DNA of 63,700 nucleotides, filler included, from an uncultured Methanosarcinales archaeon (GTDB taxonomy: Archaea; Nanobdellota; Nanobdellia; Woesearchaeales; UBA12501): NCBI GenBank assembly GCA_964397315.1. It is 4 parts of 4 records of this genome, joined end to end, with 100 filler letters (N's around TTAATTAATTAA, not from the genome) between each part and the next. Parts side by side here need not be neighbours in the genome. Positions count along the whole stretch, not along the records: positions 19,436 to 38,613 come from CAYNHV010000025.1; 3 more parts are not named here. One strand, 5' to 3'. A model generated the notes under the pieces. That model searched no databases. It was not told the origin of the DNA and saw nothing but the letters and a program-made list of their open reading frames with translations. Made by a program: the position numbers and the translations under genes. This document shows positions 1-61,364 of this stretch, one piece after another. Within the stretch, counting starts at the first letter, position 1, and each line of letters begins with the position of its first letter.

Positions 1-55
1 AGTTTAAAAATGACCTATATCCTGCAGAAGTGAGAACTAATTTCGGACTTATTCA
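1..55. repeat. 55-bp contig-end sequence, exact reverse complement of 56930-56984 (probable end of a multicopy/IS-like element)
   Basis: AGTTTAAAAATGACC...GGACTTATTCA matches the reverse complement of 56930-56984 exactly; both copies are at contig termini. Confidence 0.9.
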
Positions 56-4586: not shown

Positions 4587-4932
4587 TGTAGGGTCGGGAT
4601 AAGCCGCCTTCTGTCACAGCCGAACAGGCAGCTTTATTGCAGCCTGCGATGCTGTGTCCTGACATTCTACTAAGCGTCTTAATGACTTGCACAAGCCGGG
4701 GCTCGCCGTTTCAACCCTTCCTGACAGCATGCTCAGCTGGTTATCTCAGCTGTGTCGCCACAGCCTTCGCAAGCATCACAGCGCCTGCCAGGTGGTATCG
4801 TTTCTGAGCGGTTGCCTCCTGTTTCCAGGACTTACGCCCTCTGGGGGCAAAAGCAGCCGATTATAGTGGGCGGACTTTCCTCAGCAGAAATGCTATTCAG
4901 CATTCCACCGCCAGTCAGGTCCCAACCCTACA
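4587..4932 (-). ncRNA. rnpB: RNase P RNA
   Basis: Minus strand has GAGGAAAGTCC and ACAGAAGGCGGCTTAT conserved regions, closed by terminal helix GTAGGGTTGGGA/TCCCGACCCTAC. Confidence 0.92.
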
Positions 4933-19435: not shown

Positions 19436-19492
19436 CATGCCATCCGGTGTTCCACCGGTGGTAGCCGCTCAACTATATTTTTGTTTGACTCA

Positions 19493-19590
19493 AAGAACCT
19501 GCTGTCTGGTTCTGGAGTGAGGGTGGGAAGTACCACGAAAGATAACCAAAAACATATTTTTCCAAAGGGCGGGAAGCACCATGAATTACC
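19493..19590 (+). repeat. partial copy D of the dispersed leader + G-rich mini-array element
   Basis: AACCTGCTG..GGTTCTG leader end, then AGGGTGGGAAGTACCACGAA and AGGGCGGGAAGCACCATGAA 46 nt apart. Confidence 0.75.
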
Positions 19591-35444: not shown

Positions 35445-35705
35445 AAAACACCCTCCTGGATGGATAAATCTCAGATATTAGGGAGTTTAAAGAGGGCATT
35501 TATAAAGGTTTTGATGGAATTGAGGTTGCCTCTGCCCTGTTTATGAGTTAAAGATGCTGCTCATTGTAAAAAGGGGATTCCTCCTGAGTTCTCCATTGGA
35601 AGGGCATTACTCTGTTCACGCGCAGGCGGGATTTCACTGCGCTCAATCCCACGAAATGCCCTTTAAGTGTTGAAGCACTATGATTAAATCTCCTGTGCGT
35701 ATTTT

Positions 35706-36240
35706 GGTTAATCCAGACTTAACCACCACCTTCATCACAGTTACATATAGATAAATCCCCCTAAAAATAATCCCGACTCGCAAGCTTAAATATAATTCCG
35801 ACTGAAGTCGAAATTATAAGACTTGCCTAAGCTTCGCTTAGTCAAGCGTCTGGGATTACTGAAAATACAAAGTATTTTCAGGCCTGCAAAACTTTGTTTT
35901 GCAGTATTAGAATTGCCAAACTTCGTTTTGCAATCTCCCACCCCTCACACATGCTTAGCGCACCAACCCACAGAGCGCTTTAAGCATATTACTGGGTGGG
36001 CTTATTGGAGGCGGAAGCAGAGAGTTGTGCTTTTCCAGAAGGTGTAAGCCTGCTAAGTGGTTCTGCAGAAAGGGAGGGAAGTACCAGGAAGGGCCAGCAC
36101 AAACTTATTATCCCCTAGGAAGTACCAGGAATCATTATCATAAACAAACTTTCCTAAGGGTGGGTAGAACCTGGAACTGTAAAAACTAAAATATCAGCTT
36201 CCCAAGGCGGGAATTACCAGGGATAATAATCATAAGCAAG
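35706..36240 (+). repeat. copy A of the dispersed leader + G-rich mini-array element (4 units), interrupted by a hairpin insert
   Basis: Homologous to 58796-59100 and 61020-61364 (reverse); ACC cores at 36083, 36124, 36169, 36216. Confidence 0.8.
35768..35934. mobile_element. branched tri-loop hairpin insert (REP/MITE-like)
   Basis: CTGAAAATAC-AAA-GTATTTTCAG, CTGCAAAAC-TTT-GTTTTGCAG, CTAAGC-TTC-GCTTAG; absent at the equivalent site of copies B and C. Confidence 0.65.
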
Positions 36241-36246
36241 CCCCGC

Positions 36247-36414
36247 TTACATGAAAACAGCAGCTATGATGAATCCTATTATAATCCCTATGAGAAGGCC
36301 GGTTATGAGCTCTTTTGTGCCGTAGTGCATCTCCTCCTCTATCTTCTTGAGCTCTCCCAGCTCTTTTTTCTCCATCTCCTCAAGAGTTTGCCTTGACTCT
36401 TTCTTCTTTGCCAT
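36247..36414 (-). CDS. small membrane protein (55 aa, absent from ORF track)
   Basis: MAKKKESRQ...ELITGLLIGIIIGFIIAAVFM; abuts the upstream gene's stop. Confidence 0.65.
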   Translation of the reverse strand: MAKKKESRQTLEEMEKKELGELKKIEEEMHYGTKELITGLLIGIIIGFIIAAVFM

Positions 36415-45945: not shown

Positions 45946-48900
45946 ATGGCAAGGGGGTATGTGGAAGGGGGATGGTTTACACCTTCTGAAATAGCTGATA
46001 TTACCGGAAAGAAGCCTCAAGAGATAAAGTCTTCTCTGGAGGAGCTTGCAGACAGCGGACTTGAGATTTTATCAAGGCGTAATCCTTCTTCCAAGATGCA
46101 GCAACATTCAGAGCCGCAAGGCTTAGAATGGCAGTATTTCATAACAAAAAAGCATATCCCCTATCTTTCAGGCAACAGAGGATTCCCTGAAAAAAGATTA
46201 AACGTAAAAATACCTGCTAGGGAATATAATCAGCTCCTGGGTGATAATTCGGACAGGGAAAACTATAATACTGCTGCAGAGCCAGACATCAGTACTCCTG
46301 ATAAAATTAAAAGACTTGGAGAAAAGGCATTGGCTGACTATTGGGAATATCATGCTGGCAAGACTAGAGGTCAGATTCCTCCTAATCTACACAAAAGACT
46401 TAATAAATATGGGAAATTGCACGAGATTCCAAAATTTGATTATGAAAAACGCAGAAAACTTAAGGGGGAAGAAGCTCTTTCTGAGTACAGGGAAAATTAT
46501 AATGGTATGGCAAGAGGCCAGCTTCCTGCCGCCCTGTTGGAAAGATTAAGAATGTATGGGCAGTTAGACAAGATTCCAAGAAGAGATGATGAAGAAACAA
46601 TAAGGAAGATGGGTGAGGAAGCTCTTGCCGAGTGGAGAGAAAAATATAGTGATAAGACGAGAGGCCAGCTTCCGTCTCGTTTATATCATAGGCTTAAGAG
46701 GTCCGGGCAATTGGATAGGGTTCCGAGAAGAGATGATGAAAAAACAACAAAAGAGATAGGGGGGGAAGCTCTTGCTGAGTATTGGGAGAATCATGTTGGC
46801 AAGACTAGGGGCCAGCTTCCAAAATGTTTGTACAACCGGCTTAAAAGATCTGGACAATTGGATAAGGTTCCGAGAAGAGATGATGAAAAAACAACAAAAG
46901 AGATAGGGGGGGAAGCTCTTGCTGAGTATTGGGAAAATCATGCTGGCAAGACTAGGGGCCAGCTTCCATCTGATCTATATAGAAGGCTCAGAAGGTATGG
47001 TCTGTTGGGTGAGATCCCCACACTAGATCGTGAGGAGCGGAGGAGGATTATGGGTGAAGAGGCTCTTGCTGAGTATTGGGAGAATCATGTTGGCAAGACT
47101 AGAGGTCAGCTTCCAAAATGTTTGTACAACCGGCTTAAAAGAGCCGGACAGTTGGATAATCTACCTGGTGGTCATGGCAAAAAAAGGGAGGAAAAACAGC
47201 CAGAAACCACTGTTCATGAAACTTTCCAGGAAATACCTCCAAGTGGATATAAAAAACCACGTCGCAGAAAGTCATCATCAAAAAAGGTCAATCCAGAGGT
47301 GCAGGCTGAGATCTCCAAGGCAAAACAAGGGGCTGGAGCTGAGATGTATGCGAATCTTGACAGGGCTGCATTGGACCTGAGGTACAGGCACAATATCTTT
47401 ATATCAGAGAAGGAGCTGGAGGAGATTGTGGAGAAATACAGCCTCTACACAGAGGGAAGCGAGAGTGAAGTGCTGTTCAGCACAACAATTGACGCGGCTG
47501 TCAGTGGAGGTTTGTTCAACCAGTACAAGCCGAAAATCCAGAACAGCGAGGGGCATCCAGAAGAGAGTGATGAAAAAAATCATTATTCTGAAAAAAAGAA
47601 GCCGGAACAAAGCAGGAAAGAAAAGAAAGCCGGACAAAAGAAGCTTGCAGCAGAAGATGATGAAGACAGTGAAGAAGGCCTGGAATTAATTATTGAAGAA
47701 GGGGGGATTCTCTTTGATGACCCCTACAACCTGGATGAAGCGAAGTTGAAAGGCAGGGATGATGAAACCGATTCCCGCTTCAAAGACAATGTTCTATTTA
47801 AATATCTCAGGGAGATGGAATCTTACAGCCTTCTGACATCTGAGGAGGAGATAGAGCTCGGAAGGGGCATGCGCGAGGTTACATCAGACATAGCAGGAAT
47901 CATGTTCAGCCAGGAAAAATTCTTCTCAAATTATATAAATATGGTCTCTGACGAGAATCATGGCCTTGAGCATTTAAGCGCTGTAATGCCTGACAAGGAC
48001 TATGAGAAGACAAAGGGTTATCTCATGTCAGCAGCAAGAAAGGTTATTGAAGAAAACAAGCTTGATGATGTTGAAAAAAAGGACGTCCCTCCAGGGCTGT
48101 TATCTGAGACAGACCATGAGGGAAACAGTCTCTACAGGATTTACAAGGACATACTCACCGCGAGAAAAGGATTAAAGAAGTTCAAGTCAAAAAAAGCAAG
48201 AAAAGATGTGCTTGACGAGCTTGGTTTTGAGTCAGTGGAGCATATTGATGATTTCCTGGGCAGTCTTGAGCCGCTCTTTGAGCAGTACAGGAGTATGTTT
48301 GACAGGTTCTTCACCAGCAACCTGAGGCTTGTTGCAAAGATTGCCAATAAATACCGCAATAAAGATATACCTGTGACTGACCTCATCCAGGAGGGCAACA
48401 TTGGTCTTGCCAGGGCAGTTGGGAAGTTTGACTACAGGATGGGTTACAAGTTCTCCAGCTATGCGACATGGTGGATACACCAGAGCATAATAAGGTCTCT
48501 GGCTGAGAATTCAAGAACAATAAGATTGCCGGTCTACCTCTCAGAAAAGATAAAAAGGATTGTCAAGGCAGAATCAGAAATTTTCAAAGAGAGTGGAAAA
48601 AAGCCGACAGCAGAGGAGATAGCAGAACATGTTAACATGGAACCTGCAGAGGCTGCTGCGTACATGAATATAAACAGGCAAACACATCCGCTTTCGCTCC
48701 ACATGCCTGTTGGAAAATATGAAGACACCCCTCTGGAGAATCTCTTGGGTGATGAAACAACAGACCCTCCTGATGAGGATGTTGATAAAGGATTATTAAA
48801 AGAGATCATAGAAGAGAATCTTGAGAAGCTCTCTCCAAGACAGGAGAAGATATTGAAGATGAGATTCGGGATTGATGAGAGCCATGACCACACTCTGGAG

Positions 48901-58499: not shown

Positions 58500-58795
58500 A
58501 AAAGTATATAAATCTTTGCATTTTGTTTTTAATATAAATGGATTCTGTTAAAAGGTCTAACTTAATAGTCTTCTCACCGCCCTCCAATGACTACAGACCT
58601 AAAGGTTCTGGCTGTGTTCCTTAAGGAGAAATCAGCCTGAACAGGAGAACATGACACAGGATGAGATTAAGGTCAGCATCAGCAGGCCTGAGAATTGCAT
58701 TTGGTTGTGAGAGTGAGATTGCGCTTTGAGATTTAGTGCGTGGCTTGTTTTTCTATACAAGTTTTAGCAGGTCTTTTGTTTTCCTGAGTTTTCTT

Positions 58796-59100
58796 TTCCT
58801 GGTGTTTCCCTCCCTTTCTGCACCACTGCTTAGCAGGCTTATTGCTTCTGGAACAGCACAACTCTCTGCTTCTGCCTCCAATAAGCCCACCCTTTAATTT
58901 GCTTAAAGCGCTCTGAATGATTTGCTGCTCTCAAGCTGTTAAAGGAGGTGGGCGGGATTTATCCCTCTGTAATTGTGTCTGGGGCGGCGGTTATGCCTGG
59001 ATTATTCTTTTTGCTCTTGACTCAGAACAAAACATTGGTTTATCATCACTCTTAAATGACGAAAACCGAAAGCTTTAAATAGGAGTAATACCTAACAGGT
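58796..59100 (-). repeat. copy B of the dispersed divergent-promoter/leader element (1 repeat unit)
   Basis: Highly similar to 61060-61364 and homologous to 35971-36090. Confidence 0.85.
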
Positions 59101-59229
59101 GTTGGGTTTGGTGGAAATCTTTTATGGTCTTTAGGTTGTTTATTATTCATGCACTCTGTGAAGGAATTGATTAAATATTCTGGGATAACAGTATTTTTAT
59201 TTATGAGAGGTTTTCACCAGAGCCCAGCA
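59100..59229 (+). ncRNA. candidate rod-shaped small RNA
   Basis: 59101-59125 pairs with 59203-59228; every non-Watson-Crick position is G-U on the + strand; starts ~20 nt after TTTAAATA. Confidence 0.45.
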
Positions 59230-59270
59230 ATAGTAAAATTTTTATATTCTTTTTAAGAAAATGTGGTATT

Positions 59271-60074
59271 ATGGAAATTTCACATATGAAGTGTATAAAT
59301 AAGAATATTGTTTTTAGTGTTTGGTATCTTAAAAATCATTTTAAAAGAAAAAAACCTTTTGTAGGGATTATGTGCCATGGCCTACCTAGTCATCCCTATC
59401 AGCATAATCCTGCTAAAATTGAAAAATTAATTTTAGATGGTTGGATCCTTGTTTATCCTAACTACCAAGGTACATGGGCGAGTAAAGGTGATGTGTCTTG
59501 GGAGGGCTGTGTTGAGACAATAATTGATGTAGCGGAATTTATAAGTAAAGGCAATCTAAAAAGCATCAAAAATCAAAAACTTTCTTTTAGAAATCCTAGG
59601 TTGGTGTTGATAGGTGGGAGTTTCGGTGGTTCTGTTGCGCTTGTTGCAGGTGCAAAATCATCTTTGGTCAAAAATATTGTTTGTGTTGCCGGCGTAACAA
59701 ATTGGAGAAATCATCAACAAATACCAGAAGAATATGCAGAGCCTTTTGATGAATTATATAAAACTGTCTTGGAGGGGTTTGGTCCTTTATGGAGAATACC
59801 TTCTAAAAAAGAATGGTTAAGGTTAGAGAAAGGGCTTGTAGATCTAAATCCTATAGATTATCATAAAAAACTTAGTAAGAAGAGTATATTTTTGGTCTAT
59901 GGGAAAAAAGATAATATAGTTTCTTCAAAAAGAGGCATTGAATTATACAAAGAGTTAAAGAAGGGTTCTGGAAATCATGAATTAATATTATTAGACAGGG
60001 GGCATTGTGATTATAATGTTTTCTCAGAAGATAGCCTGTATAAAAAATTGTCTTTATGGTTGAAGAAAGGTTAG
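59271..60074 (+). CDS. alpha/beta hydrolase, AT-rich
   Basis: CHGLP, YQGTWAS, GGSFGG nucleophile elbow, D and GH triad candidates. Confidence 0.85.
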   Translation: MEISHMKCINKNIVFSVWYLKNHFKRKKPFVGIMCHGLPSHPYQHNPAKIEKLILDGWILVYPNYQGTWASKGDVSWEGCVETIIDVAEFISKGNLKSIKNQKLSFRNPRLVLIGGSFGGSVALVAGAKSSLVKNIVCVAGVTNWRNHQQIPEEYAEPFDELYKTVLEGFGPLWRIPSKKEWLRLEKGLVDLNPIDYHKKLSKKSIFLVYGKKDNIVSSKRGIELYKELKKGSGNHELILLDRGHCDYNVFSEDSLYKKLSLWLKKG

Positions 60075-60645
60075 ATCTGTTTCCTTCTCGACCAATACCC
60101 TTCTCTATCAGCTGATTCTCCACATGCGACGCATTCTCCATCTATTATCTTATGGAGATTCCAACCTAAGAATTTTCCTTGAGAAACTAATCCATTTCTT
60201 CTTTCTTTAGTTTTGGGGTCTGTTTCTCCATACATATCTTCTATGCAACTATCTTGACCGCACCAATTAAATAATCCTACAAAACCAGAAGAAACTGCTT
60301 CACTAAGAGTGTCGGAATCTGAAGAAAAAACAAGCGCCCTCTCTTTGGTTGTTTCTTTTTTTCTTTCTAAATATTCTTCAAATCTTTTTTCACAATCATC
60401 CAAATAGGATAATAGATTTTCCGCAGAAACTTTCATGGGCATATATCCTTGCCCCTCCCACCTATGCCATATTGGTAAATTTTTCTTTTTCAGTTCTCTT
60501 TCACCAATCTCAATTCTAATAGGGTGCCCTTTTAATTCCCAATCTTGTCTGCATTCACCTAATTTTTTATCGACATCAACTTTTACCAGGTATCCTTGTT
60601 CTGATAAAGTTGAGTTTAGAGTACCAACATACCTTGAAACATCTT
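60071..60645 (-). pseudogene. proS: 5'-truncated prolyl-tRNA synthetase fragment (anticodon-binding + C-terminal Zn domain)
   Basis: Frame upstream of 60442 reads DWELKGHPIRIEIGEREL; downstream WCG..C..GECVACG; no start codon or catalytic domain. Confidence 0.7.
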
Positions 60646-61002
60646 GAGAATCTCCAGCCCCAGAACATTCAGGAGGTAAGGCTCTTCATAAGCAAAATAC
60701 TAAAAGAAGAAGACCTGAAAAGCGTGGGAGTGAGCGCAAGAGCAGACAACCAGGCAATAATGGACAAGTACCAGAAAACCAAAGAAGCGCTCAAGATAGA
60801 CAAGCAGGTGGAGGAATACGACAAGGACGGGCAGAAATACACCAGGATAAGAACAAAAATAAACCCCAGGAAAAACATGAGCGGCCTCGCACTCTACGAG
60901 AGCATACCAAAATGCCTCGCCAAAAGAATAGACGACATCAAGATAGACCCAAAAGTCAGGGACAAGATAAAAATCGTAAACCCAGACCCTCTGGTGATGT
61001 GA
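60640..61002 (+). pseudogene. internal fragment of a probable surface-protein gene
   Basis: Coding-like codon usage; no promoter or clear start; YESIPK..IVNPDPLVM then stop. Confidence 0.45.
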
Positions 61003-61019
61003 TATTTAAGTTAGTAAGT

Positions 61020-61364
61020 CCTGGTCCCACCCTTAAATAGGCTTGCTTATAATTATAATTCCAGGTACTTCCCACCCTTACTGCAGAACCACCTAGCAGG
61101 TTTTTTCCTTCCAAAACCGCACAACTCCCCCTCTTCTTTAGCCAATAAGCCCACCCAATGATATGCTTAAAGCGCTCTGAATGATTTGCTGCTCTAAAGC
61201 TGTTGAAGGGGGAGGAGGGTGGGATTTATCCCTCTGTAATTGCGTCTGGGGTGGTGGTTATGCCTGGATTATTCTGGCTCTTGACTCAGAACAAAACATT
61301 GGTTTATTATCACTTTTAAATGACGACAACCGAAAGCTTTAAATAGGAGTAATACCTAACAGGT
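61020..61364 (-). repeat. copy C of the dispersed divergent-promoter/leader/mini-array element (2 units)
   Basis: CCCACCC cores at 61026 and 61071 (45 nt apart); forward TTTAAATA at 61338. Confidence 0.85.

Follow-up and report, generated by a model that had tools for sequence, protein, structure and literature searches.

What is a locus in which a conserved leader precedes a short motif alternating with variable segments? The question is raised by four such loci in a stretch of 63,700 nucleotides (nt; hereafter the window) from the draft genome of an uncultured Methanosarcinales archaeon that GTDB places in the Woesearchaeales (assembly GCA_964397315.1). An earlier note on the window had proposed that these mini-arrays are transcribed guide arrays with a CRISPR-like (short palindromic repeats, clustered and regularly interspaced) or TIGR-like (tandem interspaced guide RNA) organisation. 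As fallbacks it had offered an array of protein-binding or recombination sites, and a degenerate tandem repeat. The window joins four contigs of one genome through N linkers: C24 (1-19335), C25 (19436-38613), C26 (38714-56984) and C48 (57085-63700). This genome, denoted G000, is assembled in 61 contigs (C-numbers below) of 1.47 Mb in total with 46% G+C, and is rated 93% complete. Our analyses indicate that the element neither stores guides nor encodes a peptide. With moderate confidence, we read it as a lineage-specific family of non-coding composite intergenic repeats, similar in design to BOX elements and bacterial interspersed mosaic elements (BIMEs), and not as a guide array; both fallback readings fit the observations.

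The four loci are present where they had been reported, far above chance. The unit pattern gave six matches with at most three mismatches in the window (19520, 19566, 36071, 36157, and 58796 and 61059 on the minus strand) and none in 100 dinucleotide shuffles of it. The first 16 nt of the leader occur in exactly three exact copies, at 35971(+), 58900(-) and 61164(-). Leader alignments reached 88% over 120 nt (35971-36090 with 58796-58915), 81% over 69 nt (36022-36090 with 61059-61127) and 78% over 63 nt (19492-19554 with 61044-61106). Locus 2 lacks most of the leader because contig C25 starts at 19436. Direct reading of the sequence agrees with the unit periods given before (41, 45 and 47 nt; 46 nt; 45 nt). 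The leader of about 100 nt is likewise real and conserved, but it had been drawn too short, since the conserved element begins about 110 nt further upstream. When the search for leader and repeat was carried to the whole genome, as the note had advised, the four loci turned out to be four of about 90 copies. An iterated nhmmer search returned 90 matches in G000, of which 52 are full length (about 210 nt), and a weight matrix of the unit gave 172 matches of at least 10 bits, against 3 in a shuffled genome.

The core of about 210 nt is made of invariant sequence blocks with variable stretches between them. It is followed by one to at least four detectable units of 45 or 48 nt, an undercount because degenerate units escape detection. 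Among 57 unit spacings, 31 are of 45 nt and 15 of 48 nt. The minisatellite after the core is built of about a dozen recurrent unit subtypes, and the predominance of these two spacings reflects the small number of subtypes, not many independent events. At locus 1 the four units differ at several positions and one lacks half of the motif; Tandem Repeats Finder reported nothing at 35900-36300, the units being too degenerate for this program. The 20-nt unit motif, AAGGGNGGGAAGTACCAGGA, recurs weakly and in inverted orientation at the left end of the element. The reverse complement of the left end aligned to the unit and right end with a median score of 16, as compared to 10 and 12 for two controls, and 35 of 52 copies beat both. 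The left-end motif itself has 127 matches in G000 (13 in the shuffled genome) and occurs two or more times beside 25 of the 52 full elements, at spacings of 64-80 or 103 nt.

The family is also mosaic at a larger scale. A hairpin-rich insert, module B, interrupts the element at the same place in copies on C1, C2, C9, C33 and C3, and is found alone as well. Copies often stand head-to-tail or are nested with other repeats. Many are preceded by a unit of another copy, or by the remnant of a promoter-like box together with a unit, and in head-to-tail pairs the junction has the same form at several loci. Several nested repeat families make up about 4% of G000; by self-BLAST, repeated DNA of all families together amounts to 58 kb, or 3.9% of the genome.

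The proposal of a transcribed guide array did not survive these comparisons: the segments between units recur from locus to locus, the units are degenerate, Cas1 was not found and no covariation was detected. Of the 187 post-unit segments, 102 have a counterpart at another unit with 80% identity or more, as opposed to none of the 187 24-mers drawn at random from the genome. A few types recur (the largest comprise 17, 14, 12, 9 and 8 segments), and this small "spacer" vocabulary is common to different loci. A single non-self match of at least 20 nt was found for the segments outside repeat blocks in G000, and it adjoins another copy of the element; the family pattern had no match in viral contigs. 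Cas1 (PF01867) was not found in G000 at its 93% completeness, whereas control genomes were positive. The zinc-ribbon domain of TnpB was not found in the five genomes searched (G000, three genomes of the same genus and G007, a relative from another genus). The recommended survey of neighbouring genes returned no Nop, Cas, reverse transcriptase or integrase domain in the 11 open reading frames (ORFs) scanned by Pfam, eight flanking the window loci and three from other contigs, all matches being to unrelated families; a genome-wide Nop search was not made. Nor did the suggested pairing between a segment ending in TTCCY and the next unit find support, real junctions scoring -5.7 kcal/mol as against -6.4 +/- 0.16 kcal/mol for swapped partners. 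The covariance check, which the note had named beforehand as able to refute the guide reading, yielded neither a consensus fold nor covariation.

The loci do resemble CRISPR arrays in layout: they are dispersed, and behind a conserved upstream region a short motif alternates with variable segments about 25 nt long. Among archaeal CRISPR loci, too, there are known cases of scattered mini-arrays that have a long conserved leader. Unlike in CRISPR arrays, the repeats are non-identical, the segments are recurrent, and neither Cas1 nor targets were found. The loci also differ from TIGR-Tas systems by the lack of a Nop-domain Tas gene among the 11 ORFs scanned, within the limit of the Nop search given above.

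The earlier note had also argued against a conserved peptide, on the grounds that indels are not multiples of three. Its conclusion is upheld here on other grounds, as 49 of the 57 spacings are in fact multiples of three. In most copies, one forward frame runs open from the core into unit 1, for about 33-55 codons. However, the first codon of this sole long frame varies (V, A, E, Q, L or G), frames break within arrays, a second frame is also open, and stops occur in one or other frame of the common unit subtypes. In the core, the period-3 signal of column entropy is 1.5 times the mean power. Peptide coding was therefore rejected for want of a conserved start codon, an unbroken frame and codon periodicity. 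On the reverse strand, a 40-codon frame of G000 is interrupted in the other genus, as read from the alignment.

RNA structure was equally inconspicuous. Over about 270 columns, alifold gave -8.5 and -5.7 kcal/mol on the two strands and no consensus fold; with 72 copies of the two genera, it gave -1.16 kcal/mol for the core with unit 1 and 0.0 for the left half. The predicted transcript of locus 1 folds like its shuffles (z = 0.05), and no Rfam family matched (best E = 0.77). A covarying hairpin in the left module of the element (module A) seemed plausible by eye and was lost under alifold.

The core carries a box, TTTAAGCA, of the same kind as the TATA boxes of G000 genes, which are of the TTTATA/TTTAAA type and peak 21-40 nt before start codons. 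(Genes of G000 are mostly leaderless, with a Shine-Dalgarno-like word in only 118 of 578 upstream regions.) The TTTAA form of the core box is found in at least 34 of 65 copies; another sequence takes its place in the rest, and also in most of the G007 copies read. In about half or more of the copies, this TATA-like box could start a transcript through the units. Because the box is not kept across the family, such transcription, as predicted from sequence, would probably be a side effect and not the purpose of the element.

We then considered gene context. For 55 copies both flanking genes were called; 29 of these copies point the same way as the gene downstream and 26 the opposite way. The gaps holding them are tandem, convergent and divergent in 33, 12 and 10 cases, which follows the background. 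With no tie to gene orientation, the element serves its neighbours neither as a dedicated promoter nor as a 3' element. Intergenic gaps with a copy have a median length of 693 nt, as compared to 62 nt for other gaps. Neighbouring copies more than 1 kb apart on a contig have the same orientation in 26 of 37 pairs (expected fraction 0.52; one-sided p = 0.019), and all ten copies on contig C1 are co-oriented. No link was found between copy orientation and GC skew (p = 0.81) or the gene-strand majority (p = 0.48).

The copies behave as repeats in assemblies. Contigs of three DNA runs from one study stop at elements, where depth is about ten times that of the flanks. A contig of run X2 joins 58931 to 61196 and a contig of run X1 leads from 61100 back to 58856, both being joins of loci 3 and 4 that are recombinant or chimeric. 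No empty site was seen in contigs of the three runs. Depth was also uneven at 60621-61062, the region of a 130-amino-acid ORF without Pfam family (60610-61002), where the contig depth was 3-4 times that of the neighbouring regions in all three runs; this region may be multi-copy or common to other strains. Element copies coincide with assembly breaks, and locus 1 marks a gene-order break: in three same-genus genomes, its neighbour genes to the left and right are widely separated or on different contigs.

The distribution of the family is narrow. BLAST detected it in two of 41 related genomes, G000 and G007, the latter from another genus of the same family, and in none of four same-genus genomes. 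A strict pattern was matched by one Candidatus Woesearchaeota metagenome-assembled genome among 185,579 species representatives, and the family pattern had no match in metagenome contigs. Across 301 genomes of the order, a two-unit pattern had 27 matches in G000 and one or two in each of six others; two-unit arrays occur in none of the 300 other genomes, and among the matches listed all were unrelated sequences. A 10-nt motif is enriched in G000 (115 matches) as well as in G007 (43), and mildly so in G013 (31), a genome in which BLAST found no family copy.

In the reading that we favour, the unit motif is probably a protein-binding site, which could be bound by a transposase, a recombinase or a host DNA-binding protein, and whose copies on either side of the core would face each other as mirror images. 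Arrays would lengthen or shorten through slippage or unequal recombination between units, and copying or gene conversion between copies would keep the family similar within a genome.

Several observations weigh against such a repeat family. No target-site duplication was found at 37 simple copies, the borders taken from self-BLAST being approximate, and the inverted similarity of the ends is weak, with 35 of 52 copies beating both controls. The best pair of copies is 94.8% identical and the median is 74%; with no near-identical copies, recent movement is not shown. No autonomous partner was found and G000 holds no long multi-copy element; by reading, the ends of its ISL3-type and IS200-type transposase genes are unlike the element. 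Position and conservation count on the same side. Five of the six flanked G007 loci stand beside genes whose G000 orthologues have a copy within 230-400 nt, and such shared sites fit long residence as well as, or better than, free mobility. Over 65 copies, conservation reaches at least 95% in 79 of 206 columns and stays below 60% in 37, where equal rates predict 0.2 conserved columns; G007 has the same base in 69 of the 79 conserved columns and in 16 of 60 variable ones. This unevenness is unlike decaying junk and argues that each copy is constrained or that only competent copies multiply. Since the block-wise conservation is common to two genera, selection appears to act on the blocks, whether copy by copy or through those lineages of copies that multiply. 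Shared blocks and shared sites together suggest constraint or very long residence.

The shared sites lie beside genes for a metallophosphoesterase, a family 2 glycosyltransferase (GT2), a lipoprotein, a helix-turn-helix (HTH) protein and one more, and orientation relative to the gene, read from coordinates, agrees at four of the five. The copies at these sites are not each other's nearest relatives (ranks 17 to 53 of 65), and median identity is 74% within a genome and 66% between G000 and G007. At the GT2 locus, the alignment between the genera is confined to the promoter region of the gene, and the repeat blocks have different borders. Given these distant copies and differing borders, a single ancestral insertion could not be shown. 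The gap upstream of the metallophosphoesterase gene is empty (about 50-80 nt) in two same-genus genomes and filled (about 685 nt) in G000; in two other same-genus genomes it holds an unrelated GC-rich sequence. DNA identity over C25 is 66-77% for G007 and 67-78% for the same-genus genomes, and this similar closeness leaves ancestral presence with loss in one branch as open as repeated insertion into permissive gaps. At locus 1, the side of the aIF5A gene that holds the element in G000 is cut short in G007: a little upstream of aIF5A the contig stops, within the 3' end of a transposase-like ORF (locus L017 1-160). The C-terminus encoded by this ORF resembles an integrase core by eye, and Pfam rve gave no match.

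Transposase genes were then examined as candidate partners. A Y1_Tnp gene of IS200 type is present once in G000 (C20:6920-7330; locus L024 1462-1872) and once in G007, while the search for it in the four same-genus genomes was negative; it also occurs in 8 of 39 other searched relatives, which are without the family. The hairpins flanking the gene are homologous between G000 and G007, with a TTTA loop between CC and GG. Their 10-nt core has 11 matches in G000, two flanking the gene and nine elsewhere. No copy of this hairpin resembles the element, and the nearest element copies are about 6 kb from the Y1 gene on the contig. Judged by sequence, the hairpin looks like a small family of its own, comparable to repetitive extragenic palindromes (REPs) or palindrome-associated transposable elements (PATEs). 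Five of the nine dispersed matches belong to one larger repeated hairpin, and a weak copy lies at about 58597-58606(-), upstream of the ATPase gene beside locus 3. The link to Y1 is only a lead, because Y1 also occurs in relatives without the family and its own hairpins are unlike the element. An intact gene for an ISL3-family DDE transposase (404 amino acids, C20:5105-6319) stands 600 nt upstream of Y1, with no second copy in the assembly. A Pfam search found no rve-type transposase in G000 or G007.

Other explanations can be set against the composite-repeat reading. A CRISPR- or TIGR-like guide array with a leader and an unrecognised effector would account for the conserved upstream region, the promoter-like box and the succession of repeat and variable segment. 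It is nevertheless highly improbable, as 102 of 187 segments recur, the units are degenerate, Cas1 and the TnpB zinc-ribbon were not found, the 11 scanned ORFs have no Nop or Cas domain, no targets were found in G000, the family pattern is unmatched in viral contigs, and neither structure nor covariation was seen. We likewise give very little credence to small genes for peptides with repeats of 15 or 16 residues (RVGST-type). The 49 spacings in multiples of three and the frame open for about 33-55 codons into the first unit of most copies would suit them. The absence of a conserved start codon, the second open frame, the stops in common subtypes and the lack of codon periodicity in the core would not; by reading, the frame also changes between the two genera, and the 45- and 48-nt spacings stem from few unit subtypes. 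It is possible, if unlikely, that the copies are about 80 small non-coding RNA genes, in which the TATA-like box would start a transcript about 30 nt downstream and through the G-rich units, and the repeated single-stranded motif would bind or titrate an RNA-binding protein or pair with targets. The box TTTAAGCA in the core of at least 34 of 65 copies, its similarity in type and spacing to the promoters of G000, the block-wise conservation common to both genera and the positions beside the same genes at five of six G007 loci all speak for such genes. Against them stand the non-TATA sequence that replaces the box in many G000 copies and in most G007 copies read, the absence of a fold, of covariation and of an Rfam match, and an orientation that ignores genes, so that many transcripts would run antisense into them.

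The remaining alternative invokes a partnership like that of REP doublets forming hairpins (REPINs) with their REP-associated tyrosine transposases (RAYTs). In this case the single-copy Y1 (HUH) transposase would copy or maintain the elements through single-stranded DNA, and the family would be vertically inherited with it. Both family-holding genomes have Y1_Tnp, the search for it in the four same-genus genomes without the family was negative, and the flanking hairpins of the two Y1 genes are homologous. The co-orientation of 26 of 37 neighbouring pairs (ten of ten copies on C1) and the lack of any target-site duplication seen also speak for it, and the combination of shared positions with genome-specific sequences is consistent with persistent, vertically inherited repeats. 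We still hold it improbable, because the enzyme is encoded in eight of 39 relatives without the family, its gene is flanked by different hairpins with about nine further copies, none of them element-like, the element offers a Y1 enzyme no conserved hairpin as a recognition site, and orientation is unrelated to GC skew or gene-strand majority. A wider version is conceivable, though we think it quite unlikely. The family would then be not junk but a persistent, constrained system of about 80 position-stable intergenic modules in an ultra-small archaeon, consisting either of mirror arrays of one 20-nt motif for a dedicated protein, maintained with Y1, or of promoter-bearing RNA genes that titrate a nucleic-acid-binding protein.

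The composite-repeat reading has its closest model in the BOX elements of Streptococcus pneumoniae and S. suis. In these, as published, boxA and boxC enclose a variable tandem array of boxB, copies cluster and insert into one another, about half of the sites are common to all strains, and there is no evidence of current movement (PMC3049150). The likeness is one of design only, between unrelated hosts: both are composite intergenic repeats that combine conserved modules with a variable number of a short tandem module, and in both, copies cluster and nest with other repeats and many sites are common to related genomes (PMC3049150). The present family differs in its archaeal host, in having its tandem units at one end, after the core, with an inverted motif array on the other side, and in the absence of a stable predicted fold or end-module stem-loop, while a fold is predicted for BOX. 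The search for an insertion sequence whose ends resemble the element was negative here.

With REP/BIME and REPIN-RAYT systems, the family has in common that it is extragenic, is present in many copies and combines motifs of either orientation into a mosaic, as well as genome-specific sequences at shared sites and a single-copy Y1 gene in both family-holding genomes. In contrast to those systems, the motif is not palindromic and there is no conserved hairpin; Y1 is flanked by a different hairpin with its own small family and occurs in relatives without the element. MITEs, or miniature transposable elements with inverted repeats, are similarly small, non-coding, multi-copy and intergenic, with an inverted similarity of the ends that is weak here. 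In contrast to MITEs, the copies showed no target-site duplication, their terminal inverted repeat is gapped as well as weak, the search for a parent insertion sequence was negative, and neither a base-paired structure nor near-identical copies occur. A published MITE census lists a Woesearchaea genome among the MITE-richest archaea, with 105 per Mb (PMC11602168).

The family bears on how DPANN genomes are viewed and annotated. These genomes are small and tightly packed (the median gap in G000 is 62 nt), yet about 4% of G000 consists of repeats. The family mimics a leader-repeat-spacer locus closely enough to mislead array finders, and it coincides with assembly breaks and, at locus 1, with the gene-order break. 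If a binding protein or Y1 is truly its partner, REP/BIME-type biology would extend to archaea, and a Y1-maintained module system, if true, would be the first REPIN/RAYT-like or BIME-like partnership in this domain.

The coordinates of the four window loci and of their parts are given in Table 1. Repeated DNA at locus 1 ends at 36242, where the self-BLAST block C25:16087-16807 (window 35522-36242) stops. Most copies join module A straight to the core. Module B of this locus consists of an outer hairpin whose loop holds an insert of 60 nt, itself rich in hairpins. Copies of the module are 97-100% identical within G000, 83-93% identical to those of G007 and 88-89% identical to those of one same-genus genome; it is thus conserved more strongly than the surrounding coding DNA (66-78%).

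Table 1. Positions of the element and its parts at the four loci of the window.
Feature	Window coordinates	Strand	Basis
Locus 1, left module A: C-rich blocks and weak inverted copy of the unit motif	35709..35760	+	nhmmer model 2-53 at C25:16274-16325
Locus 1, nested insertion: hairpin-rich module B, outside the family proper	35761..35940	+	most copies join A straight to the core
Locus 1, core (leader of the earlier note): conserved blocks without conserved fold	35941..36070	+	nhmmer model 52-209 at C25:16500-16654
Locus 1, B recognition element (BRE)/TATA-like box TTTAAGCA within the core	35971..35989	+	direct sequence reading
Locus 1, unit 1	36071..36090	+	pattern match, 0 mismatches
Locus 1, unit 2: degenerate, without first G-run	36112..36131	+	direct reading; 41 nt past unit 1
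Locus 1, unit 3	36157..36176	+	pattern match, 2 mismatches
Locus 1, unit 4 (degenerate, 36204-36223) and last spacer-like segment	36204..36242	+	direct reading
Locus 2: core (3' part only) with two units (19520-19539, 19566-19585), truncated where the contig starts	19437..19605	+	nhmmer model 159-209 at C25:53-103; self-BLAST
Locus 3: full element, TATA-like box 58900-58915, single unit 58796-58815	58796..59004	-	nhmmer model 2-209 at C48:1920-1713
Locus 4: full element, TATA-like box 61164-61179	61019..61271	-	nhmmer model 2-209 at C48:4187-3976
Locus 4, units: unit 1 61059-61078; shortened unit 2 61019-61033		-	pattern match; direct reading

Other features of the window were noted in passing. 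A small hairpin module of the CCACCGGT...ACCGGTGG type is found at 19436-19480 and at about C20:4760-4800 of G000, and recurs at contig starts and beside several element blocks. An archaeal RNase P RNA gene lies at 4596-4923(-) and marks the genome as that of an archaeon. A 147-nt repeat in six tandem copies, 66-84% identical, occupies 46315-47185 within a long coding region. Finally, the first 55 nt of C24 (window 1-55) are the exact reverse complement of the last 55 nt of C26 (56930-56984), and the two contigs are therefore probably adjacent in the assembly graph.

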